Assembly: GCA_965368975.1 (NCBI GenBank)
Contig: CBDUPA010000023.1
Coordinates: 1-64,000, forward strand
Direction: 5' to 3'
DNA: 64,000 nt
Source of the DNA: an uncultured bacterium
GTDB lineage: Bacteria; Acidobacteriota; Thermoanaerobaculia; Multivoradales; JAHZIX01
This document shows, in pieces, positions 79 to 54,810 of this stretch (within the stretch, counting starts at the first letter, position 1; each line of letters opens with the position of its first letter). The notes beneath the pieces were generated by a model. That model saw only the letters and a program-made list of their open reading frames with translations, made no database searches and was not told the DNA's origin. The translations under genes and the position numbers were made by a program.

Positions 79-1226
79 TCTTCTGGCATTGGCTCCATTT
101 GCAGTGTCACGGGCTGTGCTGCGGCCACGACCGGTGCCTCTTCGGCCATCTCGGCTCCGGCGGGCGGAATGGGTGCGCGCGTGGCGACCACGCTCTGTGG
201 GTCGTTGTGATGGCTCCACAGGGTCTCGCCGGCGCTGGCGGCGGGCAGGGTTGCGGTAGCGTCCGGATCGAAGATGGCCATCGGCAGCTCGAGACGAGCG
301 ACGCGCAGCAGTTGCCACTTCCACATTTCCTGGCCATTCTGCAGACGCCAGCGGCGCAGCGGCATGTCGTCGAGCACGGCATACGGATTGACGTCGTCGC
401 CGTCGACCGGCGGAGCGATGCCGCGTTCGATGCTGGCGGTCAGGCGACGCAGGCGTACGGCGCGGTCGGTGACGCGACTGAGCCGCGACAAGAGGTCGCG
501 CGCCCAGACGGGAATGCCGGTCTCAGCCGCCGGTACCGTGCAGGCTCGCGAGACCTCACGCCGCTGCCGGCTGCCGTCAGAGGTCAGGCGCTCGCGCTCC
601 AGGCCGACCAGCCGGCAGGGCTGATCGTCGGTGTCCATGTCGAGGATTTCCTCCGGGGACAGTTCGCGCGTGTAGACCTCGTTGTAGCTGGTCAGGTAGT
701 GGCGATAAGCGGTGATGCGGGCCAGGATGTTCGCCTGCTGCGTGGCTTCCAGCTGCGCGGCCATGGTCTCGGACTCGTCCATCTGCTGTGCCAGCGTCGC
801 TTCCGCGAGCTCGATCATGCGCGCGCGGATTTCGGTCACCTCGCCGGTCTGTCGCTGGATCACCAGGAAGCGGTCTGGGTCGGCGAGGAAGATCAGGCTC
901 AGGTTGTCGACACTGCCCGTTGCCTGCGGTCCGGCTGTGCTGCTCGAAACGGTGTGCCCATCCAGGCGCATGTGCCCGGGAACCAGCAAGCCCAAGACTT
1001 CCGTCACGTCGCCGCCGCCCTCGCTCAGGTCGCTTTCCCGCCAGGTGATGAGCAGGCCTTCGGTGGTCTGCGCGCTGTCCAGCGTCGCGGGCTCCGCCTG
1101 GGGCTCCGCCTGGGCCGTGGCCGGGCCTGTCGAGGACCACGGTGCGGCCAGCAGGAGCGCGACGGTGGCAGCGGCGAAAGGACGGAGCAGAGACGGACAT
1201 CGGGGTAGGCAAGACTGGAGCATCAT
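1..1226 (-). CDS. Secreted hypothetical protein (3' end outside window) with Q/P/E-rich repeat linker
   Basis: Not in the ORF track because it has no stop in the window. Manual translation from ATG 1226 gives MMLQSCLPRCPSLLRPFAAATVALLLAAPWSSTGPATAQAEP..., open to position 1. It has a signal-peptide-like N-terminus and EPVQEQPIQEQPVQPIQE repeats. Confidence 0.7.
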   Translation of the reverse strand, partial: MMLQSCLPRCPSLLRPFAAATVALLLAAPWSSTGPATAQAEPQAEPATLDSAQTTEGLLITWRESDLSEGGGDVTEVLGLLVPGHMRLDGHTVSSSTAGPQATGSVDNLSLIFLADPDRFLVIQRQTGEVTEIRARMIELAEATLAQQMDESETMAAQLEATQQANILARITAYRHYLTSYNEVYTRELSPEEILDMDTDDQPCRLVGLERERLTSDGSRQRREVSRACTVPAAETGIPVWARDLLSRLSRVTDRAVRLRRLTASIERGIAPPVDGDDVNPYAVLDDMPLRRWRLQNGQEMWKWQLLRVARLELPMAIFDPDATATLPAASAGETLWSHHNDPQSVVATRAPIPPAGAEMAEEAPVVAAAQPVTLQMEPMPEEPVQEQPIQEQPVQPIQEQPVQPIQE

Positions 1227-2263: not shown

Positions 2264-4096
2264 GTGAGGCCCTTCCCCTTCTTTCGCTTACGCCTGACTA
2301 GCCTGTGGCCCGCTGTCGCGGCCTTGACGGCGGCGAGTGTTCTGCTGGGCTGGTGGCTGCTGCCGGACTTGGTGCAGCGCAACGCGGAAGAGCACTTGCT
2401 CGACTGGGTGCAAATCCTGACGCCGGTTGCTGCCGAGCAAGGGGCTGCTGAGCAAGGGGCCGACGAGCAAGGGGCCGACGAGTCGCGGCAGCTGCAGGCC
2501 TGGGTAGAGGAGTTGACGCGCAGCGGCACCCTACGCCTGACCGTCATCCGTGACGACGGCTTGGTGCTGGCCGACAGCGATCAGAGCTGGCAGGCTGTGC
2601 AGACGATGGACAATCACGCCGGCCGGCCCGAAGTCGCCAGCGCGCTCCAGGACGGCAGTGGTGCCGCTACCCGCACGTCGAAGACGACCGGTCTGGCCTA
2701 CGTCTATGCCGCGCGTGCCTATAGCGCCGGCAACCGCCGCCTGATCTTGCGCGTCGCCAAGCCGCTGCGGGACCTCGACCTGCTGCGCAATCGGTTGCTA
2801 CAAACGACCGCGGCGGCGGCGGCGCTCGGCCTGCTCGTGCTGGCGCTGACCTACTGGCGTCTCGACTCGCGTTTCTTCCGGCCGCTGAGCCAATTGCTCG
2901 ATGCCGCCGATCGGTTGGGCGGCGAGGAGCAGCAACAGCTGGAGCTGCCGCAGCAGCTCGACCTGGCACGGCTGGCGGCGGCGCTCAACCGGCTGGACCG
3001 GCGTGTCCATGAGCAGTTGGCGACGCTGCAGGACGAGCGCGACCACCTGCAGCGCATCCTCGCCAGCATGCACGAAGGCGTCCTGGTCACCGATCGTTCC
3101 GGCCGCGCACGCCTGGCCAACCAGGCCTTCCTGCGCCTCTTCCGGTTGGTCGATGCGGACTCGGTGATCGGACGCTTGCCGCTGGAACTCAGCCGCCAGC
3201 GCCAGCTGGCAGAGGTCATCGAAGCTTCGTTGTCGGGAACGGGGGAGTCTCAGCCGGAGCAGATCCTGGAAACGCCGCGCGACCGGGTTTTGGCGCTGAC
3301 CGGGACGGCATTGACCGGGGCTTCGTCCGTCGCTGGCGCGGCGGAGGTGGCAGGCGCCGTCGTGGTGGCGCGCGACATCACAGAGCAACAGCGGCTGACC
3401 CGGATGCGTCGCGACTTCGTGGCCAATGTCTCGCACGAGCTGAAGACGCCGCTGGCGGCCATCCGTGGCTACGCCGAGACGCTGCGCGACGGTGCCCTCG
3501 AAGACAAGCCGGCCGCCGAGCGCTTCACCGATCGCATCCTCGTCCAGTGCCAGCGCCTGCAGGTGCTGCTCGAGGACTTGCTGACGCTGTCACGCTTGGA
3601 AAGCGTGGCGCAGCAGCCGGACCTGGATCCTGTCGATCTGGTGCGTCTGGCCGAGCGCACCGCCGAGCTGGTGGTGCCGGTGGCGCAGGAGCAGAACGTC
3701 GAGCTGGCGCTGGCCCTGGAGCCGGTGCCGGCGATCGTCGGAATCCACAACGATCTCGAACGCTTGCTGCTCAACCTGTTGCACAACGCCATCAAGTACA
3801 ACCGTGCCGGCGGGCGTGTGACCTTGCGTCTGGCGCCGGTCGGCGACCAGGTATGCCTGGAAGTCGAGGACAGTGGCATCGGTATCCCGGTCGAGGTCCA
3901 GCCGCGGATCTTCGAGCGCTTCTATCGGGTCGACAAGGACCGCTCGCGCAGCGCCGGTGGTACAGGGCTGGGCTTGTCGATCGTCAAGCACATCGTGCAG
4001 GCGCACGAGGGGACGTTGGAAGTCGAGAGTACGCTCGGTGTTGGCTCGCGGTTCCGAGTCCTGCTGCCGATCGAGCCGCTCCAGCGTCCGGCCTGA
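2264..4096 (+). CDS. phoR: PhoR-like sensor histidine kinase (2 TM, HAMP, PAS, HisKA, HATPase)
   Basis: MDNHAGRPEV periplasmic motif, DFVANVSHELKTPL H-box, NLLHNAIKY, FERFYRVDKDRSR, GGTGLGLSIVKH. Confidence 0.85.
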   Translation: MRPFPFFRLRLTSLWPAVAALTAASVLLGWWLLPDLVQRNAEEHLLDWVQILTPVAAEQGAAEQGADEQGADESRQLQAWVEELTRSGTLRLTVIRDDGLVLADSDQSWQAVQTMDNHAGRPEVASALQDGSGAATRTSKTTGLAYVYAARAYSAGNRRLILRVAKPLRDLDLLRNRLLQTTAAAAALGLLVLALTYWRLDSRFFRPLSQLLDAADRLGGEEQQQLELPQQLDLARLAAALNRLDRRVHEQLATLQDERDHLQRILASMHEGVLVTDRSGRARLANQAFLRLFRLVDADSVIGRLPLELSRQRQLAEVIEASLSGTGESQPEQILETPRDRVLALTGTALTGASSVAGAAEVAGAVVVARDITEQQRLTRMRRDFVANVSHELKTPLAAIRGYAETLRDGALEDKPAAERFTDRILVQCQRLQVLLEDLLTLSRLESVAQQPDLDPVDLVRLAERTAELVVPVAQEQNVELALALEPVPAIVGIHNDLERLLLNLLHNAIKYNRAGGRVTLRLAPVGDQVCLEVEDSGIGIPVEVQPRIFERFYRVDKDRSRSAGGTGLGLSIVKHIVQAHEGTLEVESTLGVGSRFRVLLPIEPLQRPA

Positions 4097-27193: not shown

Positions 27194-28141
27194 CTAGCCG
27201 AGGCTGTCGAGATCGCTCAGGCTGGAGCGGTAGCGGCGGCTGACGCGGAGCTCCGTGCCGTCCTGAAGCCGTAGATGAGCGTCACCATGGCCGACCGCTC
27301 GCAGCTCCCTCACGCGTGCCGTGTTGACCAGGGTGGAGCGATGGATACGCCGGAAGCCGTGGACCTGCAAGCGGTGGTGGAGGTCTTTCAGCGGTTCGCG
27401 CAGCAGGTAGCTCGAAGGCCCTACGTGTAGGCGGCTGTAGTTGCCGTCGGCCGCGACCCAATCGACCTCCGCGGCATCGACCAGACGCGTCCGGTCGCCG
27501 ACGCGGACGCTCAGGCGTGGCGGCGTGTCCACTGGCTGTCGCAGCAAACCCTCGAGTCGCAGCTCGAGTTTGAGTGCCTGTAGCTGGGCTTCGCTGAGCT
27601 GAGCTTGGAGCGCGGCGGTCTCCAAGCGCCTGAGTTGCTGGCGGCGTAGCAGGTCGTAGGCTAGACCGGCGGCGCCGATGGCTGCGTAGCCGAGCAGGAA
27701 GAGCACGAAGCCGACGCTCATGTAGTGCAGCCAGCCGAGCCACAGGCTGCGTACCGACGCCTGGCTCAGCGTGCCTGCATGCCACATGTGGAGCAGTGCC
27801 AGGTAGGTGGAGTAGAGACAAGCCCAGCCGGCCGCCGTGCTGCTGTGCAGGGCGAACTCGCCGATATGCCTCGACCACTTCGCGCCTTGTTCTCCCGCGT
27901 CTTCACGCTGCCAGCGGCGGTGTAAGATCCAGTGCAGGAGGGCCGCAGAGGCGGCGGCCCAGGGCCACCACAGCAGGAGAGCGTCGGTCAACTCCCGCCA
28001 TATGGAGGCGGGCTTCTGTCCGAACACCAGGGAGACATACCCCTGTGCCGCGGTGGCGAGAACCAGCAGAAGCCAGGCGGCCCAGAAGACGAGTCGGCCC
28101 GGGGGCGCCGGAGTGTCGGTGCCTCGAAGGCGCGACAGCAT
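27194..28141 (-). CDS. Membrane-tethered LytTR regulator (LytS-type TM sensor fused directly to LytTR)
   Basis: About 4 TM helices, then the LQAQLSEAQLQALK coiled coil, then LytTR (VDWVAADGNYSRLH, FRRIHRSTLVN, LRVSRRY). ATG 28141 overlaps the upstream TGA. Confidence 0.82.
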   Translation of the reverse strand: MLSRLRGTDTPAPPGRLVFWAAWLLLVLATAAQGYVSLVFGQKPASIWRELTDALLLWWPWAAASAALLHWILHRRWQREDAGEQGAKWSRHIGEFALHSSTAAGWACLYSTYLALLHMWHAGTLSQASVRSLWLGWLHYMSVGFVLFLLGYAAIGAAGLAYDLLRRQQLRRLETAALQAQLSEAQLQALKLELRLEGLLRQPVDTPPRLSVRVGDRTRLVDAAEVDWVAADGNYSRLHVGPSSYLLREPLKDLHHRLQVHGFRRIHRSTLVNTARVRELRAVGHGDAHLRLQDGTELRVSRRYRSSLSDLDSLG

Positions 28142-29007
28142 CAGTTCGCGGACGAAGGCTGGCGCACTTCGTAGCGCAGCACCTGCTCGCCCATGGACAC
28201 CTGCAGCGTCCACGACCCTGCCGGCAAGATTTGCGCCGGCACGGTGAGCGTGAAGTGACCATCGGTGTTGCGCAGCAGGCCGTCACTACGCCAGGCTGGT
28301 TCGCCTCCGGCATCGAGGATCTCGACGCTGGCACCGGAGGTCTGTGACGTGCCCAGAGCGCCGTCGAGCAGGACCAGCGTCAGCAACGGGCTGTTGGGCG
28401 GAATCTCGACGTCGTTGACGTAGGCAGCTTCGGCTGGGGGGCGAGAACCGCGGGAGACGGCGGTCGGGGTGCTGGCGAGCAGGTTGACGACCGGCGTGTT
28501 GAGCAAGGGGCCGAGGTCGTCGGTGGTGATCTGCGGAGCGAGCAGGCTGTAGATCAAGGCGACCGCGAGCACGACGGCGATCAGCGAGGCCGCCAGGGCC
28601 CAACGACGCCACGATTGGGCGCTGCGGCTCACACCTGGCTCCTGTGGACGACGGAAGGGCAAGGGAGCTGCATCCTCGGCTGTAGGCTCACAAACCAGTT
28701 CGAGTTCCTGCTGGCACTCGGCACACGCTTCGAGGTGATTGCGTACCAGCGTCAAGCGCGGGCTGGCCTCCAATTGCCCGAGGGCGAAGTCGACCAGGTC
28801 TTCCGCCGGTACGTGACCAGCATGCAGATCGCGGGCGCGGCGCGTGGCCCGCAATTCCTCGCGGCACGCATCACAGGTGCGCAAGTGTTGCTCCACCAGC
28901 CGCGCTTCGTGCTTGTCGAGGGTGCCATTCAACCACCAGGGCAGCAATTCGCTCACCGTCCGGCACTCGAGGCCCGAGGTCCCGCTCGACGCGGCCTGTT
29001 CCGACAT
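28141..29007 (-). CDS. Anti-sigma factor with two zf-HC2 domains, one TM helix and an extracytoplasmic domain
   Basis: HLRTCDAC and HLEACAEC; WALAASLIAVVLAVALIY TM helix. Confidence 0.88.
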   Translation of the reverse strand: MSEQAASSGTSGLECRTVSELLPWWLNGTLDKHEARLVEQHLRTCDACREELRATRRARDLHAGHVPAEDLVDFALGQLEASPRLTLVRNHLEACAECQQELELVCEPTAEDAAPLPFRRPQEPGVSRSAQSWRRWALAASLIAVVLAVALIYSLLAPQITTDDLGPLLNTPVVNLLASTPTAVSRGSRPPAEAAYVNDVEIPPNSPLLTLVLLDGALGTSQTSGASVEILDAGGEPAWRSDGLLRNTDGHFTLTVPAQILPAGSWTLQVSMGEQVLRYEVRQPSSAN

Positions 29008-29011
29008 GAGC

Positions 29012-29614
29012 CTACTTTACAGCTTGACGGCGTTCTGGGGAACCCTCGTCGTGTGCTGGCTGTTTCGGCTCACCGTGGTGCGTCTGCCACCAAGCCAGGG
29101 CGCGTCGACGGCAACGCAGCACGCGCACGCGCAACGTGCCGGTCGCGATGCCCAGCTCGTCGCTCATCTCGCGGTAACTCTTGCCGGCCAGAATCAGCGT
29201 CCACAGCCGGCGGCAGTCGGCGGGCATCTGGTGCATCAGGTGGTGTAGCCGGGTCACGGCTTGGGCCTCTTCGATACGCCGCAGCACGGAGGGTCCGCGC
29301 GCCCGTGGCTCGGGCAGGTTGTCGTCCTCTGCGCTGACTTCGCGCGAGCGTTTCTGGTCACGCAGCAAGTTGAGACACGTACACTGTGTGACTCGCCACA
29401 GGTAGGTGCGCAGCCGCGAGTCGCCGCGGAAGGATCCGGTGCGCAGCAGGCTGGTGACTTCGAGCAGTAGCTCCTGCTCGACATCCTCCCAGGGCATGCG
29501 CAGCGACACCCGGAAGCGCCTGCCTGCCTGCCCCAACCACTGCCGAATCTGGGCCACTGCGTTGGCGTCGCCGTTCAGGAAGTCCGCGATGAGCTGCTGA
29601 TCGTCTCCGTGCAT
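29012..29614 (-). CDS. ECF RNA polymerase sigma factor
   Basis: EDVEQE, FRGDSRLRTYLWRV (region 2); KSYREMSDELGIATGTLRVRVLRCR (region 4). Confidence 0.9.
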   Translation of the reverse strand: MHGDDQQLIADFLNGDANAVAQIRQWLGQAGRRFRVSLRMPWEDVEQELLLEVTSLLRTGSFRGDSRLRTYLWRVTQCTCLNLLRDQKRSREVSAEDDNLPEPRARGPSVLRRIEEAQAVTRLHHLMHQMPADCRRLWTLILAGKSYREMSDELGIATGTLRVRVLRCRRRALAWWQTHHGEPKQPAHDEGSPERRQAVK

Positions 29615-29758
29615 GATCCCCGGTGTCAGGAGCTGTGCTCGAGTGTCTTGGTGCTTGTCACTAGTGAAGTTGTCATTAGTGAAATAGACATTCGTACACG
29701 GGGAATTCCCGCGATAGCTCTGGTGTGAGCACTCCAAGGGTGCTTCACGAATAGGCAG

Positions 29759-29789
29759 TGTAACGCTTCCGGGCGCTTCGGTGACTAAC
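29759..29789 (+). promoter_or_regulatory. Putative ECF-type promoter upstream of the defensin-like gene
   Basis: TGTAAC -35 (AAC motif) followed about 17 nt later by TGACTAA. Confidence 0.45.
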
Positions 29790-29865
29790 CCTCTACGAGG
29801 TTCAGCCCGTTCAGCGTGAGCGGCATCCTCAGGTCACTTTCTACGAACCAAGGAGGTTCAACACC

Positions 29866-30198
29866 ATGAAGAACACTTTCCTCAGTCTGCTCGCCGTCCT
29901 GTGTCTGGCCGCGCTGATCTTTGCGCCGCTGACCTTCGCCAACGAAGCCCCTGCCGACGTGCCGGTTGCCAACCAGACGCTGGATCTCGCGGATATCGTC
30001 AACCCCCAGTCGAGCGTCGAGACTACGGGCGCCGAGATGTCCACGGACACCCCGAGTCCCGACTTCATGCAGGGTCCCTATCCTGGGCACGCTGCCTGCT
30101 TCGACTTCCACGACGAGTGCAGCATCTACTGTGCCCTCCAAGGCTATCTGTACTACAGCGCCAACTGCAACAATATGACCTGCAGCTGCTACAGCTGA
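29866..30198 (+). CDS. Secreted prepropeptide with CSαβ defensin-like six-Cys C-terminal domain
   Basis: AAGGAGG RBS; signal peptide (..LTFA|N); acidic pro-region; C-x6-C-x3-C-x11-C-x4-C-x-C. Confidence 0.78.
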   Translation: MKNTFLSLLAVLCLAALIFAPLTFANEAPADVPVANQTLDLADIVNPQSSVETTGAEMSTDTPSPDFMQGPYPGHAACFDFHDECSIYCALQGYLYYSANCNNMTCSCYS

Positions 30199-30281
30199 TC
30201 GTCATGTCTGTCGGATGAACGTCCTGCCCGTAGGATGTTCGATAGGGGGGTCTCCTTGAGGGGGGAGGCTCTTCTTTGCAT

Positions 30282-33200
30282 CTAGCGCCAATCGCCGTTC
30301 AGCTGAAAGCCTGCCCAGTGGAACGGGTGTGCTGCTCCCGGCAGAGCCAGCAGGTCCATCTTGGCGAGTCGCAGAGATTCGGCCTTGTTCTTTCCTTGCC
30401 TGAGGTAGTGATAGAAGCGTTGCATCAGCTGGCTGGTCGAGGCATCGTCGACCTGCCACTGCGACGCGAGCACCGAGCGCGCACCCGCGAACTGGAAAGC
30501 TCGAGTCAAGCCGATGAGGCCCTCGCCGCCGGCTTCCGTGCCGAGTGCGGTGTCGCACGCCGAGAGGGTGACCAGATCGGCGTCGAGCCGCAGCTCTTCG
30601 AAGATTTCCCATACTTGCAGCAGGCCGTTTTCCCGCTCTTCTCGTCCTGGCTCCGGCAAGTTCTCATTCTTGGGTAAAGCCAGCGCCAGCGCTGACTCGA
30701 AAGGGGAGCGGTCGTTGAGTAGGCCGTGGCAGGCGAAGTGCACCAAGTCGGCCTGCCCGGCCAGGGCCTTGACGCGCTCTTCTGTCGCGGCGTCGCCGAG
30801 GAACCCCAGGGATTCGGGGAAGAGACGCTGCAGGGCACGCACTTCGGCGCGGCTTCCCGGTAGCTGAGGCAAGCTGCCTGACGCAGGTGTACCGGCCACG
30901 GCTTCACGGGTGTACTCGGGGTCGCCGAAAGCGACCAGGCGTTGTGCGGAGTCCGCCCGTCGACGATCCTTCAGCTGGGCGAGGACCGTCACCGAGGCGG
31001 CAAAGTGCAGTGACTTGCTCTGGGCCAGGTAGCGTGGTGGTCCGGGGACGGACGGATCGGCGAGGACGCCGAACGGCAGCCGGTGCAACGGACCATCGGC
31101 GACAAGCAGCAGGCGCTCGGCGCGGTGGATCTGGTCTGTCGCCGGCGCCAGCAGCAGCGCACTCAGACGCCGGCTGTGCGCCAGCACCGGTTCGACGCGC
31201 GCGTCCGTGGTGCCGCGTGCCAGCAGCCCGCGCAGGCGTTCGACCTCGGCGGCCAGTGGCTCGTGGCTCGTGGTTAGCTCGAACATGGCGAAGTCCGAGC
31301 GCCCCGGTCCAACCGCGAACAGGAAACTCGTCGCCTCGCCGATGACGTACGACAGCAGCAAGGTGCCCGGGTCGAGCGCGGCCCGTGCAGCTGTCAGGTC
31401 GAGGGGGACGGCGTGGTCGAGGTCGGCGAGCTTCGGGGCTTCCGTCCGGATGCGCGATGCCAGCTCGTGCTGCTCTTGGCGCACTCGGATCAGTCGCTGT
31501 CGCAGCTCTTCGCCGCGCTCTTGCGAGACCGGGGTCGTGGTCAGTTCGGCGTACAGGCGATCGTACTCGGCGTTGACGAGCCGCCGCTCACGTTGCAGCG
31601 CTGCAGGTAGCTCCTGGTCGAAGCTCAGGTCCCGGCGCGCCATCAGGCGCAGCAGTCCGCGGGCTCGGTAGCGTTCCGAGATCTCGAAGGCTGTTGCTTG
31701 CCACGCTGGTGGCCTTGCCTGCTGCAGCAACTCGATCATCTCGTGGTAGTAGGCTGAAAACTCAACGGCGAAGAGGCTGTGGTTCTCGGCGGATCCGCCA
31801 GCGCGCAGCTGCTGGGCTTCCAGTGCTCGCAGGGCTCTCTGGTGCAAGGACAGGGCGTGCGTCAGCTGGCCTTGCTGCCGGTAGAGACGCGCCAGCTGCA
31901 GCGCCGCCTCGGCTTCTTCCAAGGTGCCGGCAGGACGAAGGAAGCTGGGGCCCAAGGATTCCTCTAGCAGAGCCACGGCTGTCGCGGCGTCGGAGTGGCT
32001 CAAGACGGTCGCCAACAAGTGCAGGCTGCGCGCTACGGACAGGCTGTTCGGGTCGATCGCCCGTTGGATCTCCAGTGCCTGACGCTGGTAGCGCTCGGCT
32101 GCGTCGAGTTCCCCCTGGCGCAGGGCGAGCTGGCCCAGATTGTGGAGACCAAGGCTATACGGCAGGCTGTCGGGCAGCCGTTTTTCCAGAAGAGCCTGTG
32201 CGCGTTCCTGGTAGGCGCGAGCTTGCAGCAGCTGACCGCGTCGTGCGGCGACGTCGGAGAGATTGCTCAGGTTCAGGCTGACGTTTGGGCTGCCGGGGGA
32301 GAGCTGGCGGTTGATCTCCAGCGCCTGCAGGTGGTAGGCCTCCGCAGCTTCCAGGTCGGAGCGTACAAAGGCGATCGAGCCGAGCAGACTCAGGCAGCCC
32401 GCGGCCCCGAGGCTCTGTGGTGCTTCCCGTTCGAGGCTGCGGCGCACCAAGGTCTCGGCACCTTCCAGGTCACCGCGAAAATACGAGACTGTCCCCAGGT
32501 TGTACAAGACTCGAGTTCTTTCCGGGCTGCGCGGATCGGTCTGCTCTGTGATGTCCAGAGCACGCTGGAGGTATGTCTGGGCGGTCACCAGGTCTCCGCG
32601 AGTCTGCTGCAGGAGTCCCAGATTCATCAGCGCTCGCACCACCGACATGCTGTTGGGCGTCCAGTGCTCGGCCAGGTCGAGACTGCGCTTGAAGTACATC
32701 TCGCTTTGCTCGAGGTCGCCGAGCCGGCGGTGGACGATGCCCAGGTTGTTGAGCACGGTCGCAGTGGACTGTCCTTCCGGGGCCAGGTCGAGACAGATTT
32801 CGAGCGCCTGGTTGAGCAGGATGCCCGCTTCGTGCACCTTGCCGTGGCGCCCGGTGGCGACGCCCAGGAAGTTGAGCACGCGCGCAACGCCCAGACTCTG
32901 TGGCTCCTGCTGCTGGCGCAGATCCAGCGCGGCATGGTAGTACTTGAGAGCCTTGCCCAGCTGGTCGAAACGCTCGGCGATGCGTCCCCGGGTCTCGACG
33001 ACATGGATCTGTACCAGAGTGTCCCCAGACTGCACGGCGGCCCGCGCAGCCGCGTCGAGCGGCTCCTCGGCGGCCGCCCAGCCGGTATCCGCCGGTATCT
33101 GCCGCGCTGTCAGTACGTAGAGCCAGGCCGCCGTGCCGTGGTCTCCCGCCGTCTGCAGCTGCTGCGCCAACCGCGTCCAGGCATCGTTGACCGGGCCCCG

Positions 33201-33722
33201 CTGCACATCAGCTTGCCGGCTCCAGCCTTGCTGGTAGAGCGCCCGGTCGTCCGGGTGCAAGAAGGCTCGCACCGTGAAGTCCCAGGCTTCGGGACCGACG
33301 GTCCAGACTCTGGGCAAACCACCGCGCTGTCCGTGTAGGACGACCGGCCCCAGCGGTCCGTGTTCGAGTTCGACCTCGTCGAAGTGAAACGGCGTGAGCA
33401 GCGGTCCGGACGCCGCCGCTGGCAGGCGCGGAGAGGTCGGTAGCCGTTGCCAGGAGAGTAGTTCGTCTCCCGGTCGCAGCCCTGCCGCGGCGGCGGCAGA
33501 TTCCGGGTTGCAGGACTCGACCACGATGCGCTGCAGCTGTGCGCTGGGTTCGCGGTTGGCAGCCGGCGGCGGGTTGGAAGTTGCTGGTGCAGCGGCCGCG
33601 GAGGTCAGCCACAGCAGCAAGATCCACGCCCAGCTCAGCAGGGCCGTGGTCGGTGCACGGGTGGCGTCAGTGCGGTGGGTCTGCGGGGTTCCTCGTCTCT
33701 GTCGACGTTCGATAGCGGTCAT
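30282..33722 (-). CDS. Exported PDZ-TPR-CHAT (caspase-like, clan CD) protease
   Basis: N-terminal hydrophobic segment; PDZ-like AAAAAGLRPGDELL; many ~42-aa TPRs; CHAT motifs DGPLHRLPF, HFACHG (His), LVTLSACDT (Cys), HPFHWAGF. Confidence 0.92.
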   Translation of the reverse strand: MTAIERRQRRGTPQTHRTDATRAPTTALLSWAWILLLWLTSAAAAPATSNPPPAANREPSAQLQRIVVESCNPESAAAAAGLRPGDELLSWQRLPTSPRLPAAASGPLLTPFHFDEVELEHGPLGPVVLHGQRGGLPRVWTVGPEAWDFTVRAFLHPDDRALYQQGWSRQADVQRGPVNDAWTRLAQQLQTAGDHGTAAWLYVLTARQIPADTGWAAAEEPLDAAARAAVQSGDTLVQIHVVETRGRIAERFDQLGKALKYYHAALDLRQQQEPQSLGVARVLNFLGVATGRHGKVHEAGILLNQALEICLDLAPEGQSTATVLNNLGIVHRRLGDLEQSEMYFKRSLDLAEHWTPNSMSVVRALMNLGLLQQTRGDLVTAQTYLQRALDITEQTDPRSPERTRVLYNLGTVSYFRGDLEGAETLVRRSLEREAPQSLGAAGCLSLLGSIAFVRSDLEAAEAYHLQALEINRQLSPGSPNVSLNLSNLSDVAARRGQLLQARAYQERAQALLEKRLPDSLPYSLGLHNLGQLALRQGELDAAERYQRQALEIQRAIDPNSLSVARSLHLLATVLSHSDAATAVALLEESLGPSFLRPAGTLEEAEAALQLARLYRQQGQLTHALSLHQRALRALEAQQLRAGGSAENHSLFAVEFSAYYHEMIELLQQARPPAWQATAFEISERYRARGLLRLMARRDLSFDQELPAALQRERRLVNAEYDRLYAELTTTPVSQERGEELRQRLIRVRQEQHELASRIRTEAPKLADLDHAVPLDLTAARAALDPGTLLLSYVIGEATSFLFAVGPGRSDFAMFELTTSHEPLAAEVERLRGLLARGTTDARVEPVLAHSRRLSALLLAPATDQIHRAERLLLVADGPLHRLPFGVLADPSVPGPPRYLAQSKSLHFAASVTVLAQLKDRRRADSAQRLVAFGDPEYTREAVAGTPASGSLPQLPGSRAEVRALQRLFPESLGFLGDAATEERVKALAGQADLVHFACHGLLNDRSPFESALALALPKNENLPEPGREERENGLLQVWEIFEELRLDADLVTLSACDTALGTEAGGEGLIGLTRAFQFAGARSVLASQWQVDDASTSQLMQRFYHYLRQGKNKAESLRLAKMDLLALPGAAHPFHWAGFQLNGDWR

Positions 33723-33730
33723 GGCGCATG

Positions 33731-36700
33731 CTACAGCAGCTCGTTGACGTCCGCCTCTGACATCTCTTCGATCTCTGTGAGCAGGTCATCCAGGTCGTCC
33801 ACTCCGACGACTTCGGCTTGCTCACGCGCCACGCGCACGCTCAGGCCGGCGACGGTGGGGGCTTCGAAGACGGCGCGCAGGGGCACTTCGACGCCGATCT
33901 GATCGCGGATGGCGGTGACCACTCGGCCGGCGAGCAGGCTGTGGCCGCCGAGGTCGAAGAAGTCATCACGCACGCCGACGCGTTCGACGCCGAGCAAGCC
34001 TTGCCAGATGTCGCACAGGGTGTGCTCGAGGTGGCTGCGCGGTGCCAGGTAGGCAGCGGTGGTGCTGCCCGGCCAGCCACGGTCGCGCAGCGAGCCGCGG
34101 TCCAGTTTGCCGTTGGGCAGATGGGGGAGGCTACGCTCAGCGACAAGGGCGGCGGGTACCTGGTGGCTGGATAGGGCGGCTTCGAGCTGCTGGCGGATAG
34201 CGTCGAGGTCCAGATCCTCGGACGGGTCACCTTCCGGGACGACACCTTCCGGGACGATATAGGCCGCCAGGCGGGTGTCGCCCTCGACCTGGATTGGTAC
34301 TACGGCGGCCTCGCTGATCTGTGGCAGGCCGGCGAGTACGGTTTCGGTCTCGCCGGGTTCGACGCGCACCCCGCGCACTTTGACCTGCTGGTCGAGACGG
34401 CCGATGAACTCGAGTTCGCCGAGCGGATTCCAACGCACCAGGTCGCCGGTGCGGTAGAGGCGCCGGCCACCCGTACCCGTACCAGAGCCAGTCCCGGAGG
34501 CGGGATCGGGGACGAAGCGCTCGGCGGTGAGGGCAGGGCGGCCGAGGTAGCCGCGCGCCAGTCCGTCGCCACCGGCACACAACTCGCCGGCACAACCGAT
34601 CGGTACTGGTTGGCCGTGGCGGTCGAGCAGAGAGACGTGGGTGTGCGGCAGGGGCCGGCCGATCGGTACGGTGCGTGCTCCGGCCGGGACGCGACGCACG
34701 CGGCCGGCGGTGGTGTAGGTGGTGTTCTCGGTCGGGCCGTAGACGTGCAGCAGGCGCTCGGGGCCGCCGGGAGATTCGCTGAGCACGCGGCGGATGCGTG
34801 CCGGGTCGACCAGCTCGGCGCCGTACTGCACCTGAGTGATGGCGGCGAGGGCATCTGGAGCGAGCTCCTGCATCTGGTAGAGCACCGAGGTGAGGACGAA
34901 GAGGTTGCTCACGCCTTGCTGGCGCAGCGCGCGCGCCAGGCGTGCCGGGTCGCGTTGCAGCCGGCGGCGAATGCCGACGATGGTACCGCCAGTGAGCAGC
35001 GGCGCCCACAGCTCCCAGGTGGCGGCGTCGAAGGCAATGTTGGCGACCAGGGCGACGCGTTCGCCGGCTGCGGGTAGCGTTTGTGGAACGCCGTGTAGTC
35101 CTTCACTGGGTAGCCCTCCACCGGGTAACCCCTCACTGGATAATAGGCCACCGCCGAGCACCAGGCGGTGGACGGCGCGGTGGGGGATCGCGGCGCCTTT
35201 GGGGCGGCCAGTGGAGCCGGAGGTGTAGATGACGTAGGCTAGGCTGTCGGCCCGGGCTTGCTCCGAGATTCTCTCGGTCTTAGCGGGAGAATCCGTGAAT
35301 TGTGCGGCGACAATGTTTAGGGCCGAAGATTCGTCGGTAGACGGGGCGAATTTCTGCTCTTCTTCCGCCATGTAGCGTGACGCGGGCAGTTCCAGGGCGT
35401 CGAGATGCCTTGGGTGGCCGAGGACGCAGACGGCGCCGCTGTCTTCGAGCAGGAAGCGTTGGCGCTCGACGGGATCGTCGGGGTCGAGCGGCAGGTAGGC
35501 GCCGCCGGTGTGCAACACGGCGAGGACGGCGATGATCAGCTCGGGGGAGCGGCTGAAGCACAGACCGACGCGCACATCCGGGCCCAGCGGTAGCTCGTGG
35601 GTAGCGGCTTGGCGCCGCAGTCGGGCGGCCTGGTGGCGCGCCCGGGCGTCGAGCTGGAGGTAGCTGAGATGAAGTCTGCCATAGACCACGGCGACGGAGT
35701 CCGGCTGCCGATGCACGATAGCTTCGAAGGCGGGCAGCAGGGTCAGGTCGTCGTGTCTGCTCGTGGACTGCCTTCTCGCGGACTGTCTTCTCGCGGACTG
35801 TAGCGTCGCTGAGGAGCACTCGGCGACGCTGCTCCATTCGTGGAGCAGCTGGTGCCGCTCACTGGCGTGCAGCCACTCCAGGTGTTGCACCGGCGTGTAC
35901 GGTTGTTCGAGTCCGGCGCTGAGCAGGGCCTGGTAGTGGCGCATCCAGCGCGCGACGGTGGTAGCGTCGAACAGGTCGGCATCGTAGGAGGCAGCGCCGC
36001 TGAAGCCGCCTCCGGGTCGGCTCTGGAAGTGGACTTCCAGGTCGAAGTGGGTGGCGTGGAAGTCGAGCGGCAGCGGTTCGAGCTGCAGAGCTTCCGTCGC
36101 CTCGCCGCCGAAGTCGACGCGCGGCTGCGGCAGGTCTTGCAGCGCGAAGCTGACCTGCAGTAGCGGCGTGCGCGACAGGTCGCGCTGCGGCGAAAGTTCT
36201 TCGACCAACTTCTCGAACGGCAGGTCCTGGTGCTCGTAGGCGCCCAGCGCGGTGTCGCGGATCTGCTCCACCAGCTGCTCGAAGGAGAGTTCCCGGCGCC
36301 CGCCCTCGTCGTCTTCGGTGCGCAGTCGACAGCGCAGCGCCAAGGTGTTGACGAAGAAACCGATCAGCCGTTCCAGCTCGGCCAGCGGCCGGCCGGCTAT
36401 CGGCGAACCGATGACCACGTCGTCCCGTCCGTCGACGGCACCCGCGAGGCGGCCGGCGGTGGCGGCGAAGCCGGCGAGCAGTGCCATGAAGGGTGTCAGG
36501 CCTCGGCGCTGGCTGAAGGCGTGCAGGTGGTGACTGAGGTCGTCGGGCAGGTGGACGGCCAGGCCTCGGCCGCGGAAGCGCTGCAGACTGCGGCGCGGGC
36601 GGTCGGTGGGGAGTTCGAGCGGCGGCGGCAGGCTGGCGGCTGGGCTGGTACCGTCTGGATTGGTACCGTCTGGATTGGTACCGTCTGGATTGGTACCGTC

Positions 36701-39700
36701 TGGATTGGTACCGTTTGGATTGGTCAGAGTCTGGCGCCACCACTGCATCTGACGTTCCAGTTCGTTGCCAGCCAGCCACGCGCGTTGCCATTGGGAGTAG
36801 TCGACATACTGCACGGGGAGGGGAGCGAGGGGCTCACCGCGATACGCCTGGGCCCAATCCGCCAGCAGCACACCCATCGACCAGCCGTCCGAGACGATGT
36901 GGTGCTGACTCACCAGCAGTGCGTGCTCGTCCGCCGCCAGGCGCACGAGCACGGCACGCAGCAGGGGTGCAGTGGTGAGGTCGAAGGGGCGGCGAACCCA
37001 GGCGGTCGCCAGGCGTACCGCTTCTACCGTGCGCCGCGTGGGGCACAGCCGACTCAGATCCAGACGCCTCCTGGGCTGCGGCCGCGCGGGCTCGACGATC
37101 TGCTCGGGGTCGCGGTCGCGGCTACTGCTGAAGCGGGTGCGCAGGCTGCCGTGGCGGGCAACCACGGTGTCGAGGGCCGCCTCCAGGCGCGCCGGATCGA
37201 GCGCGCCGCGCAGGCGCCAGGCGGCGGGTAAGTTGTAGGTGTCGTTGTCAGGGTCGAGGCGGTCGAGGAACCACAGGCGTTGCTGGGCGAAGGAGACCGG
37301 TGCGCGGAATACGCTGTCTGCGGGCCGCGGCTGCGTGCCGATCGGTGGTCTCCGTTCGCTCGACGCACGTCGCAGGCGCTCGGCCAGATCGGCGACGGTG
37401 GGGGCCTCGAAGACCGTGCGCATGGGCAGTCGGCGGCCGAGCCGGCGGTCGATGTGAGCGACCAGGCGGGTGGCGAGCAGGCTGTGACCGCCTAGCTCGA
37501 AGAAGTTGTCGCGCACGCTGACGCGCGGCACGTCGAGCAGCTCGACGAAGAGCGCCGCCAGCTGGGCTTCGAGGCTGGTGCGGGGAGCGGTGAACGGACG
37601 CTCGCCGCCGCCCAACTCTTCCAGTGCGGCGCGTAGCTCAGGTGCCGCGCGCCGCGCCAGCGCCCGGCGGTCGAGCTTGCCGTTGGCGGTCAGCGGCAGG
37701 GCGGTGGCGGGCAGAAAAACCGTGGGGATCATGTAGTCGGGGAGCCGCTGGCCGAGGAAGAGGCGCAGCTCGGCGGTTTCCGGCGCGATGCCGGTAGTGA
37801 CGAAGACGGCGGCCAGCCGGGCGTCCCCCTGGCTCGGCCCGCCTGCGCGCTGCCGTTCGGCGACAACGGCGGCGGCGCTCACCGCCGGATGCTCAGTGAG
37901 TACGGCCTCGATCTCTTCCAATTCGACGCGGAAGCCACGCACCTTCACCTGGGCGTCGGCGCGGCCGAGGATCTCCAGCCGGCCGTCGTGCAGATGGCGC
38001 ACCAGGTCGCCGGTGTGGAACAGGCGCGCGCCGGGAGAACCGGCGGCTGGACCAGCGGGCGCGTGACCGTCGGGACGGAAGCGGCCGGCAGTGAGCGCGG
38101 GCTGGTGCAGGTAGCCTCGGCCGACGCCGCTGCCGCCCAGGCACAGCTCCCCGGCGCAACCGAGGGAGACGGGATGGCCGCGGCGGTCGAGCAGCAGCGC
38201 GCGCACGCCCGGCAACGGCCGTCCGATGTCGGGGTCGGTACCGCGCGTGTGGCTGCCCTCGGCGCGACGCGGCACGGCACCGCTGGTGGTCAGGATAGTG
38301 GTCTCGCTGGGACCGTAGTCGTTGATCAGGCGCAGGTGGGGTAGCCGGCGGCTGTACTCGGCGGCGTCGCGGTGCAGGCGGTCGCCCCCCGGATACAGCT
38401 GGCGCAGGCAGGCGAGCGTGGGTAGGGGACCGGGGGGCTCTCGTGGTACGTCCCGTAGCAGCGCTTCGAGCATCGGGGTTGGTCCGTAGATGCCGCTGCA
38501 GCCGAGGCGTTCTAGCCAGGCACGCAGCAGTCGCGGGTCGAGGCGCGCACTCGACGGTGGCACGCAGACGGTGGCGCCGCTGGTCAGGGGGGCGCCGAGG
38601 CCGAGCAGGGAAGCGTCGAAGCCGGGGCCGTAGGCTTGGGCGATTCGCTGGCTTGGGCACACGGTCGGGCCGCTGCTGGGTGGCGTCTCGTGCCGCCGCA
38701 CCGCCATGCGGGCGGCATAGCTGCCGCACGAGATGCCGTTGCCCTTGGGTCGGCCACTGGAGCCCGAGGTGTAGACGATGTAGGCGAGGTGCTGGTGCGG
38801 TCGTCGTTGTGGTGCTGATAGGGAGGACGAGACGTTAGCTGCTCGGCGGGGCAGGTCGTGGCGTTGCCAGATCTGCTCCTTCCTCACGACCAGTCCTGCA
38901 ACCAGCTCGGCTTGCAGCCCCTGGTTCTTGGAGGCACCTTGGCCTGGTTCGGCGTCGACCAGGACCGCCACCGGTCGTGACTCTCGCAGCATGTCGAGCA
39001 GCCGTTGGACCGGCACGCTAGGGTCGAGCGGCAGGAAAGGGACGCCGGCATAGAGCGCGGTGACCTGGGTCAGCACCTGCTCGGCACAGCCCGGCACGCA
39101 CAGGGCGACTGGCTGCTCCGGCTTGGCAGATTCGCATGGGATCTCGGTGGCCAGCCGTAGGGCGAGCCGGTGCAGGCCGCCATAGCTCAGGTGCAACCGC
39201 TGGTCGTGGACGGCGATACGGTCCGGCACGCGCGTGCCGTGGTCGGCGATGCGCTCGGCGATACCCGGTGCGTCCGCTTCGCTGGTGCCTGTCCAATCCT
39301 TGGCGCCCGTCCCATCCGCCGCGAGGTCACCCTCGGCGGCCGGCGTGGTCGTGACCCATTCGTGCAACACTTGCTGGCGTTCGCCGATCTTCAGCATCGA
39401 CGCTTCGCCGATGGGCAGATCTGGATCGGCGGCGAAGCCTTCGAGCAGCGAAGCGAGAGCGTACAGCCAGCGGTGGATGGTGGTGTCGTCGAACAGGTCG
39501 GTATTGAACTCCATCTGCGGCACCGACAGCGAGCGCCGATCTGACGCGTCGTGGCCGGTGGAGACGTCGGTGAACAGGATCAGGTCGACCTGCGTGACAT
39601 GGTTCTGCACGAAGTTGCTGTCCACCGTCACCTCGCCCAACTGCAGCGGTGGCATTTCGATGTTCTGCAAGCTGAACACCGCCTGGTAGACCGGCGAGTA

Positions 39701-40947
39701 CGCCAGATCGCGCTGGGGCTGCAGCGCCTCGACCAGGCGGTCGAAGGGCAGGGCCTGGTGCTCGTAGACGGCGAACACGCGCTCACGTACCTCGGCGAGG
39801 AAGTCGCGGAAGCGCTGGGCCGGGTCGAGCTGGCCGCGCAGCACGATGGTGTTGACGAAGAAGCCGAGCATGCGCTCGGAGCCGGGCATGGCGCGGCCGG
39901 CGGCCGGCGAGCCGACGAGCAGGTCGCGCTGACCGGTGAGGCGGTAGAGCAGCACCTGGTAGGCCGCCAGGATCACCATGAAGAGGCTGGCACCGCCTTG
40001 CATCTGCAACTCCACGGCGGCTACTTCCAGGCGTGGCGAGGCGTAGTGGATGATGCGCTTGCCGTGTGTGGTCTGGGCCGGCGGGCGCGGCCGGTCGGTG
40101 GGTAGCGGCAGGATCATCGGTGCGTCTTGCAGCTGCGCGCGCCAGAAGCTCAGTTCGGTTTCCAGCTCCCGTCGGCCGAGCCACTCGTGCTGCCAGCGTG
40201 CAAAGTCCTGGTACTGCAGCTTGGGTACCGGCAGCGGGCAGGGCAGGCCCTGACGGCGCGCGTCGTAGATCTTGTTGACCTCGTCGTAGAAGACGCCCAG
40301 CGACCAGCCGTCGGAAATAATGTGATGCTTGAGGATCACCAGCAGGTGGTACTGCGTCTGGGCGCGGGGCGCCTCGACACGGAACGCCTTGATACGGAAG
40401 AGAGTGCAGCGCCACAGTGGCCCGGCTTCCAGGTCGAAAGGCCGTTGGCCCTCACGGCCAGCCAGATCCTCGGCCAGCTCGAGGGCGGTCTTGGGAGGCA
40501 GGCGGTGCAAGTCGACCACGGGCAGCGGCATCTGCATCGGCAGGGGTAGGGTCCGTTCGGATGCCGGATGGATGACCTGCCGTGGCCAGTGCTCGCCGGC
40601 GGCGTCCTCGACCTGCTGGAAGGTGGTGCGCAGCGACTCGTGACGCCGCTCCATGTCGCTCAGGGTCTGGTGCAGCGACGCTACCTGCAACGGGCCATGC
40701 AGGTCGAAGGCGAGGATCGGCAGGCTGTAGGCCAGGGTGCCAGGTTCCAGGCGGTCGGCCAGCCACAGGCGCTGCTGCATCAGGGAGAGGGGGGCTGAAG
40801 CCCCTTTGGCTGAAGACGTATGGGTTGGAGGCTCTCGAGCCGGATCTTGTCGACCTGGAGGTTGCTGCTGTTGCCGGCGTTGGCGAGCCAGGGCGGCCCG
40901 CTGCTCGGGGGTGAGCTGGGAGATGCGGCGATACAGATCCTTCAGGC

Positions 40948-40951
<4 letters not shown>
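33731..40951 (-). CDS. NRPS, 2 modules (C-A-T-C-A-T), no TE
   Basis: HHIISDG and HHIVSDG; YTSGSSG and YTSGSTG; YGPSE and YGPTE; two LGGHSLL; GTG start overlaps the upstream stop. Confidence 0.95.
36646..36724. repeat. 15-bp tandem repeat x5 (TNPDG) inside an NRPS C domain
   Basis: tggtaccgtctggat x5. Confidence 0.95.

Positions 40952-54810
<13,859 letters not shown>

Follow-up and report, generated by a model that had tools for sequence, protein, structure and literature searches.

A probable CSαβ defensin-like secreted mini-protein, anionic and without a GxC γ-core, in an Acidobacteriota-type genome

We analyzed a 64,000-nucleotide stretch of DNA (the window; contig CBDUPA010000023.1, positions 1 to 64,000 of the forward strand, assembly GCA_965368975.1) from an uncultured bacterium with an Acidobacteriota-type genome, and we describe here a 110-codon open reading frame (ORF) whose product we call the peptide. 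Bacterial cis-defensins, which share the cysteine-stabilised αβ (CSαβ) fold, were recently catalogued by Cardoso et al. 2024 (PMC11561630), who list 74 of them in five classes. We conclude that the peptide is probably a secreted mini-protein of this kind and that its layout comes closest to class IV. Because its architecture, its charge, and even its phylum have precedents in the catalogue, we regard it as extending that recently described kind. As to function, we tentatively favor a secreted factor that takes part in competition by non-lytic binding, which we rate as the most likely role at a little short of an even chance. We arrived at our ratings of this and other roles because the region is rich in antagonism genes and because the one non-cationic bacterial defensin that has been tested proved inactive.

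A sequence-only reading of the window had placed the ORF at 29866..30198, and we confirmed its position and found its translation identical to the string given in that reading. It is the sole plus-strand gene in its surroundings, flanked on both sides by minus-strand genes. The GC content at its three codon positions (GC1/2/3) is 0.53/0.46/0.82, a coding-type gradient seen in this frame only; the other two open frames over the same stretch have GC3 values of 0.46 and 0.53, and the genome as a whole has a GC of 65.4% with a median GC3 of 0.79 among long ORFs. Because a strong ribosome-binding site (RBS), a GC3 gradient in one frame only, and a signal-like N terminus coincide here, we think it probable, as part of the reading given above, that the ORF is a genuine, monocistronic gene. 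The region 5' of it (29615-29865) yielded no sigma-70 consensus promoter, and an Rfam scan of 29000-31000 with E values up to 1 returned zero matches. Terminator-like hairpins were found at two sites versus 0.5 expected in shuffles. In three DNA metagenome runs with shares of 0.06-0.11, the contigs reached parts of the neighboring CHAT gene and a 36-nt piece of the sigma gene, and the peptide gene was covered by none of them. A housekeeping enzyme from the same genome is 59-64% identical to those of metagenome-assembled genomes (MAGs) labelled Acidobacteria and Gemmatimonadota alike.

The product reads as a Sec-type signal peptide, an acidic tail or pro-region, and a six-cysteine domain at the C terminus. 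Over residues 5-20 the Kyte-Doolittle hydropathy averages 2.9, the signal region is predicted to be helical (residues 3-23), and an additional cysteine, Cys13, sits inside it. Between the putative cut (A25|N26) and C78 lies a predicted tail of 52 residues, of which residues 26-72 carry a net charge of -8 and include 6 Pro. The C-terminal framework, C78-x6-C85-x3-C89-x11-C101-x4-C106-x1-C108, conforms to the CSαβ pattern C1...C2-x3-C3...C4...C5-x1-C6 as it is worded in PMC5234102. Residues 26-110 are free of Lys and Arg and include 7 Asp and 4 Glu. Aromatics take up 7 of the 38 positions from residue 73 to residue 110, a segment that also holds two His (His75 and His82). The domain carries a net charge of -3, and the whole secreted product one of -11 (pI 4.05-4.5). 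The aromatic and His-rich residues fall in two segments, the n-loop FDFHDE and the first strand YLYYS. At the position where G-x-C is expected the peptide has A-N-C101, and no mirrored CxG follows C85 or C89, so that a γ-core is absent; the peptide likewise has neither the net positive charge nor the basic residues around a γ-core that characterize cationic defensins. The signal peptide, acidic pro-region, and six-Cys CxxxC...CxC domain named in the sequence-only reading were all borne out by the sequence and by our hydropathy and charge counts, as was its description of the predicted mature domain as free of Lys and Arg, rich in aromatics, and lacking GxC.

We predicted the fold with AlphaFold2 from the single sequence, without an alignment, in two runs, one on the whole protein and one on residues 66-110 alone. 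For the whole protein, the model has a helix at residues 73-92 and strands at 96-100 and 105-109, with a predicted local distance difference test score (pLDDT) of 88-91 across residues 81-110; residues 21-70 are disordered, with pLDDT 46-54. Residues 66-110 alone gave the same secondary elements with a mean pLDDT of 81.6. The predicted helix (beginning at residue 73 or 75 and ending at 92) carries C85 and C89, and the second strand carries C106 and C108 (pLDDT 87-93), such that in the prediction a helix with CxxxC packs on an antiparallel sheet with CxC.

These models were then compared with known structures by two independent aligners, and the matching entries are identified as CSαβ peptides by their families and titles. 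Against the PDB, Foldseek gave 8 matches at E <=10 for the whole model, the first six of which are CSαβ peptides (BmBKTx1 in two entries, lucifensin, nasonin-1M, cobatoxin, and MarkTX-7). For the domain model, CSαβ peptides made up 8 of the 11 matches, with mokatoxin-1 and ARD1 added. The Foldseek matches have a root-mean-square deviation (RMSD) of 1.3-2.9 Å over 23-29 columns and target-normalised TM scores of 0.48-0.67. VIA-align, run against 48,161 representative chains, ranked AtLURE1.2 first in both runs (Z 3.9 and 4.4, RMSD 1.7 Å, 35 of 39 residues) and mytilin second in both (Z 3.8 and 4.3, RMSD 0.9 Å, 31 of 34 residues); the 50 rows of the second run also include navitoxin, ASABF, drosomycin, and nasonin-1M. 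The xanthusin-1 and actifensin structures are absent among the structural matches listed, which weighs neither way. Since the cysteine framework, the two AlphaFold2 runs, and two aligners that rank CSαβ peptides first all agree, we assign the peptide to the CSαβ fold, an assignment supported by prediction. The sequence-only reading had named structure prediction followed by DALI or Foldseek as its own check, and on these predicted models the check came out in its favor, with CSαβ peptides at the head of both lists and no significant score.

Several results weigh against our reading and are gathered here. Each AlphaFold2 run yielded five models, of which three were confident and two poor. Every Foldseek E value is above 1 and every VIA-align Z score is below 5, a range which by the tool's own caution may mirror merely a common arrangement, so that no single structural score is significant; we attribute the weak scores to the domain being so small. 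Pfam returned 0 families for the whole protein at E up to 1 and again 0 at E up to 10 when the last 41 or 50 residues were scanned by themselves, NCBIfam gave 0 matches to the peptide, and searches of the genome with PF01097 and PF07333 did not pick it up; there is thus no significant match to a curated CSαβ model (PF01097, PF00304, PF07333, PF16839, PF05294, and others). The peptide is a sequence orphan across the databases, the 60 related genomes, and the two contig collections searched, and because it has no homologue, there is no evidence from conservation or covariation. Where class IV members have GxC, the peptide has A-N-C. It also fits the insect defensin consensus given in PMC3234185 (C-X5-16-C-X3-C-X9-10-C-X4-7-C-X1-C) save for its C3-C4 loop, which is 11 residues long versus 9-10.

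The searches behind the orphan status were broad. A word-indexed search of 5.77 billion proteins returned the query itself alone (one of five candidates), and an exhaustive phmmer search of 1.84 billion cluster representatives likewise returned only the query. Among 60 related genomes the best non-self match reached E 0.0034 (per genome), and the two best matches were rejected as homologues, their likeness being confined to the signal and the acidic tail and their Cys domains being different. These two (L003, G044:C478, about 3281-3592, minus strand; L004, G035:C157, about 440-727, plus strand) are other small secreted proteins in which a signal is followed by an acidic tail rich in Ala and Pro and, at the C terminus, by a small Cys domain, with about 10 Cys in the first and 4 in the second. 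The acidic tail may be a common export or spacer module for disulfide mini-proteins of this lineage. A scan of the genome contig collection gave 257 pattern stretches, none of which was confirmed, and two apparent relatives on metagenome contigs (L019 and L020) were rejected because their CFDFHDEC strings lie off-frame within, or antisense to, other genes. In a phmmer search of the PDB, all six Cys aligned with those of the scorpion toxin BmK37 at a non-significant E of 5.5, and the nearest language-model clusters were arthropod defensin (0.75) and scorpion Toxin_5 (0.76-0.78), which, being below the 0.9 level, are leads only.

To see how often such a framework occurs by chance, we ran a loose CSαβ regular expression over the six-frame ORFs of at least 40 amino acids in the 7.13-Mb assembly (n = 97,386). 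It matched 73 of the 97,386 ORFs, 10 of the 73 with exactly six Cys in the matched stretch. Two of these ten end within 5 residues of the stop, namely the peptide ORF and one on contig C1; two are class I lanthipeptide precursors, and most others look, by eye, like arginine-rich off-frame ORFs. The pattern alone is not diagnostic because lanthipeptide precursors and off-frame ORFs match it too. Taken together with an RBS, a signal peptide, a coding composition, and a confident fold prediction, it is unlikely to have arisen by chance.

The ORF on contig C1 encodes a second anionic peptide of like layout in the same genome, which we count in support of our reading. It lies at C1:61627-61917 on the minus strand (L010:5622-5918), and its 99-amino-acid product has a signal, an acidic tail with a seventh Cys, a six-Cys domain, and a net charge of -9. 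It comes near threshold with PF07333 (E 2e-4, 22.1 bits versus a cut-off of 22.7), also matches PF16839 at a near-threshold level, and in the PDB matches Blo t 19 (E 0.005) and ASABF (E 0.017). Its gene lies 8 nt 3' of a radical-SAM ORF and converges on a gene for a non-ribosomal peptide synthetase (NRPS). The C1 peptide had no homologue in the 5.8-billion-protein search, and BLASTP aligned it with the 110-amino-acid peptide in the signal region only (E 0.25). Searching 300 further genomes of the phylum with PF07333 gave 2 matches at E <=0.01, both of which look spurious when their frames are inspected. One frame is arginine-rich, and the other is 36 residues long and interrupted by a stop. 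The same run also failed to recover the C1 peptide from the genome that encodes it.

The lanthipeptide precursors are a separate matter. On contig C13, at 47889-48437 on the minus strand (L011:5893-6438), two tandem precursors lie between a full-length LanB gene and two LanC genes (neighbors at L011 3157-10070); their leader, MKKRARKL.L.RETLQ.LD, matches a model of class I lanthipeptide leaders at E 2e-4, and their cores, with seven Cys each, fit the CSαβ expression. The peptide does not resemble a precursor of a lanthipeptide or other ribosomally synthesized and post-translationally modified peptide: it has no leader-family match, and its neighbors are sigma, anti-sigma, LytTR, TPR-CHAT, and NRPS genes.

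Features of the peptide gene, its product, and its neighborhood are collected in Table 1. On the upstream side, the gene is divergent from genes for an extracytoplasmic function (ECF) sigma factor, an anti-sigma factor, and a LytTR protein, which together form an unusual three-part regulatory cassette. The N-terminal stretch of the LytTR protein resembles, by eye, a multi-span membrane region, and its longest frame shares 73 nt with the anti-sigma gene. The intergenic region shared by the peptide gene and this operon contains a tandem repeat found nowhere else in the genome, each copy of which holds a 10-nt palindrome, TCAYTAGTGA; from its sequence we regard it as a candidate operator for a local regulator. 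On the downstream side, 30282-54852 on the minus strand holds two NRPS genes and the gene for an exported TPR-CHAT protein that includes a weakly PDZ-like segment. The NRPS genes encode 2406 and 4634 amino acids, and because the caspase-like TPR-CHAT gene begins 8 nt after one of them (33731-40951), the NRPS operon probably ends with it.

Table 1. Positions of the peptide gene, parts of its product, and neighboring features in the window
Feature	Coordinates	Strand	Details
Peptide ORF	29866..30198	+	ATG start, 110 codons plus TGA; from the ORF list
Ribosome-binding site	29850..29856	+	AAGGAGG, 9 nt 5' of the ATG; direct reading
Sec-type signal peptide, residues 1-25	29866..29940	+	One Lys, hydrophobic core, T-F-A before the putative signal peptidase I cut A25|N26; by eye
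Acidic Pro-rich tail/pro-region, residues 26-77	29941..30096	+	No Lys or Arg; 26-72 predicted disordered
Six-Cys CSαβ-type domain, residues 78-110	30097..30195	+	Predicted helix up to 92, predicted strands 96-100 and 105-109
Terminator-like hairpin, weak	30251..30266	+	6-pair stem, between the convergent peptide and CHAT genes
Intergenic region common to the peptide and divergent sigma genes	29615..29865	.	251 bp, 54% GC
Tandem 15-nt direct repeat	29655-29684	.	Copies TTGTCACTAGTGAAG / TTGTCATTAGTGAAA; 43% GC segment
Divergent operon: ECF sigma factor, anti-sigma, LytTR protein	27194..29614	-	Pfam/NCBIfam; putative tie to the peptide
ECF sigma factor	29614-29012, probable ATG at 29614	-	Pfam/NCBIfam
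zf-HC2 transmembrane anti-sigma factor	29007-28141	-	Pfam/NCBIfam
Membrane protein with LytTR DNA-binding domain	28213-27194	-	Pfam/NCBIfam
TPR-CHAT protein	30282..33722	-	1146 aa, N-terminal hydrophobic signal or anchor; convergent with the peptide gene

We envisage the following course for the peptide. After Sec export, signal peptidase I would cut behind Ala25, and DsbA-like thioredoxin-fold proteins would oxidize the chain in the periplasm to give the disulfides C78-C101, C85-C106, and C89-C108; the genome has four matches to the DsbA-like family PF13462, and no VKOR was found in it. The product would be a rigid 4.3-kDa knob, predicted to be a helix plus a hairpin, on a disordered acidic tail of 47-52 residues. 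A cationic, membrane-active mode is impossible for such a product because it has no Lys or Arg and both its domain and its whole chain are net negative. It would act by specific binding through the exposed Tyr/Phe/His-rich n-loop and first strand, whose residues suggest recognition of a protein, a glycan, or a cell-wall precursor, and its part outside the cell would most likely be in competition or antagonism. The divergent ECF sigma/anti-sigma/LytTR cassette may be what turns on its expression. Peptide antibiotics are under ECF sigma/anti-sigma control in some lantibiotic clusters of actinomycetes, and LytTR regulators often have bacteriocin or pheromone peptides under their control.

Other explanations have to be weighed against this one. 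The ORF might be non-functional as a CSαβ gene: a long intergenic gap could contain a frame that arose by chance or very recently, or the product could take another disulfide-rich fold and fit the pattern by coincidence. It is a singleton in every database searched, the regular expression it satisfies also catches lanthipeptide precursors and off-frame ORFs, and its structural scores are individually non-significant, all of which would fit this view; however, a consensus RBS at ideal spacing, the GC3 gradient, a canonical signal, and a six-Cys framework placed exactly at the C terminus coincide in it, the AlphaFold2 result was reproduced, and both aligners put CSαβ peptides first. We judge this explanation quite unlikely. 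We are somewhat more open to an antibacterial bacteriocin like actifensin or plectasin. It would bind lipid II and block cell-wall synthesis in competitors, a mode for which high positive charge is not strictly needed, and we consider it unlikely rather than negligible. The predicted fold is the same as that of insect and mussel antibacterial defensins, the NRPS genes make the genome region rich in antagonism genes, and the mechanism of actifensin is described as common with that of eukaryotic defensins (PMC12284004). Yet the product is without Lys or Arg at a net charge of -11, GxC is missing, no immunity or export gene is adjacent, and the sole class II bacterial defensin tested, xanthusin-1, is reported as inactive (PMC11561630).

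The neighboring genes suggest further partners. As a signaling ligand for the adjoining transmembrane anti-sigma factor or LytTR membrane protein, the peptide would take part in a peptide-controlled loop, and the divergent arrangement, the common 251-bp region with its genome-unique palindromic repeat, and the regulatory precedents for ECF-controlled lantibiotics and LytTR-controlled bacteriocins are consistent with this, as is a best VIA-align match (AtLURE1.2) that is itself a defensin-like receptor ligand. However, a shared fold is uninformative about function, and no CSαβ-patterned ORF was found in the 1.5-kb flanks of 6 related anti-sigma loci in 5 family genomes; we give such a loop a slim chance. 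Even less probable, to the point that we give it hardly any weight, is that the peptide inhibits the TPR-CHAT caspase-like protease next door or mimics its substrate. The two genes are adjacent, and because both proteins carry N-terminal export signals, they could meet outside the cytoplasm. Yet the two genes converge on each other, the CHAT gene probably belongs to the NRPS operon, the second anionic peptide on contig C1 is not beside a CHAT gene, and TPR-CHAT proteins have a great many paralogues (7 matches in this genome, matches in 31 of 40 other genomes searched, and up to 15 per genome across the order), with no CSαβ-patterned ORF in the 1.5-kb flanks of 11 paralogue loci. Because 0 of 11 CHAT loci have such an ORF, the idea of an inhibitor is left without a conserved partnership. 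Complex prediction with a CHAT-domain alignment (9 rows) and residues 66-110 of the peptide, run without controls, gave 0.00, 0.34, and 0.00 against a mark of 0.32, which weighs neither way. The sequence-only reading had put forward a CHAT inhibitor, a receptor ligand, and a eukaryote-directed effector as possible roles, and none of the three gained support from the convergent gene order or from the CHAT and anti-sigma loci. A bolder proposal, which we think improbable, is that this is no diverged killing defensin but the first bacterial CSαβ peptide to serve as a self-made extracellular signal or decoy, a protease-resistant knob without basic residues, either read by the anti-sigma factor or LytTR protein or neutralizing a cationic attacker, and that it is very young or fast-evolving. 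We keep to the secreted, non-lytic binding factor as our preferred role.

Bacterial cis-defensins bear on the question of whether the fold of eukaryotic defensins and scorpion toxins began in prokaryotes, and the bacterial members known so far are almost all from myxobacteria and Actinomyces. The peptide widens the sequence space of the fold, being an orphan from an Acidobacteriota-type genome with neither a γ-core nor basic residues, and it suggests that screens demanding GxC or profile similarity under-count such genes. If it were indeed a signal or decoy, the peptide and the ASABF-like peptide on contig C1 would together point to hidden γ-core-less defensin folds in Acidobacteriota-type genomes that escape screens based on patterns or profiles. 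Its practical value is modest, as a compact, anionic disulfide scaffold.

Among known CSαβ systems, the eukaryotic ones resemble the peptide in fold and differ in surface. The predicted fold superposes on the insect and mollusc defensins lucifensin (2LLD), nasonin-1M (2KP0), ARD1 (1OZZ), and mytilin (2EEM) at 0.9-2.9 Å over 27-31 positions, but these are cationic, eukaryotic, and equipped with a GxC γ-core, and their family PF01097 does not match the peptide. The α-KTx scorpion toxins BmBKTx1/BmK37 (1Q2K, 1R1G), cobatoxin (1PJV), and MarkTX-7 (2RTZ) are the best Foldseek matches. BmK37 and the peptide domain both begin with AAC, a similarity that is not significant, and the loops of the peptide are longer. 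Toxins of the α-KTx type rely on a basic surface, a pore-plugging Lys, and a dyad of Lys and an aromatic residue on the face of the β-sheet, whereas the secreted peptide contains no Lys and so has no such dyad. AtLURE1.2 (chain C of PDB entry 5YAH) is a defensin-like plant peptide that attracts pollen tubes and is seen there in complex with its receptor kinase; it is 14% identical to the peptide and is itself basic. It shows that the fold can serve receptor ligands and not antibiotics alone. Likeness of fold, however, does not establish likeness of function.

Actifensin and actinomycesin are described as bacterial CSαβ peptides with three disulfides that are made ribosomally without modification enzymes (PMC6989792, PMC8819291, PMC12284004). 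They differ from the peptide in being cationic, proven antibacterials from Actinobacteria, and no sequence similarity between them and the peptide was detected. Peptides of the actifensin type were, according to the account of the catalogue, dropped at its signal-peptide step (PMC11561630).

The closest comparisons are with that catalogue, and its content changes how the peptide should be seen. The sequence-only reading had held that few bacterial examples exist, which is outdated: the 74 entries are described as including acidobacterial, acidic-tailed, and anionic members and one without Lys or Arg (PMC11561630). Many class II peptides are given there as neutral or anionic and aromatic-rich, and xanthusin-1, the only class II member tested, has an NMR (nuclear magnetic resonance) structure with the CSαβ fold and no antimicrobial activity (PMC11561630). 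Judged by eye from the printed sequences and not statistically, the peptide shares traits with this myxobacterial class (xanthusin-1, sicariusins, corallosins), many of whose members end in ...CxCY where the peptide ends in ...CSCYS, and several of which have QGP a few residues before C1 where the peptide has QGPYPGHAAC; class II differs in a tail of just 8-13 residues, a C1-C2 spacing of 2-5, and the presence of GxC (PMC11561630).

Class IV is defined in the same source by a predicted signal and an N-terminal tail that is unstructured, 21-53 residues long, and rich in acidic and hydrophobic side chains, with Acidobacterisin-1, Deltaprotesin-1, Fuscusin-2, and Spumosin-1 as examples (PMC11561630). 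The peptide has this layout, with a signal, 52 acidic-tail residues before C1, and a C-terminal CxxxC...CxC, a likeness again judged by eye; no similar sequence surfaced in the phmmer and word searches made with it. Acidobacterisin-1 comes from an Acidobacteria MAG and has a net acidic Cys domain, with C1-C2 and C3-C4 loops of 5 and 9 residues in its printed sequence versus 6 and 11 in the peptide, and the mature sequence printed for Deltaprotesin-1 is aromatic-rich and without Lys or Arg (PMC11561630). Of the features that the sequence-only reading had called unusual, the anionic, aromatic-rich, Lys- and Arg-free composition therefore has precedents, whereas the absence of GxC does set the peptide apart, as all 74 defensins are catalogued as carrying it (PMC11561630). 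As far as the catalogue describes them, only the missing GxC and the 11-residue C3-C4 loop depart from the known bacterial defensins, and with its signal, acidic tail, and C-terminal cysteine domain the peptide comes closest to class IV in layout.

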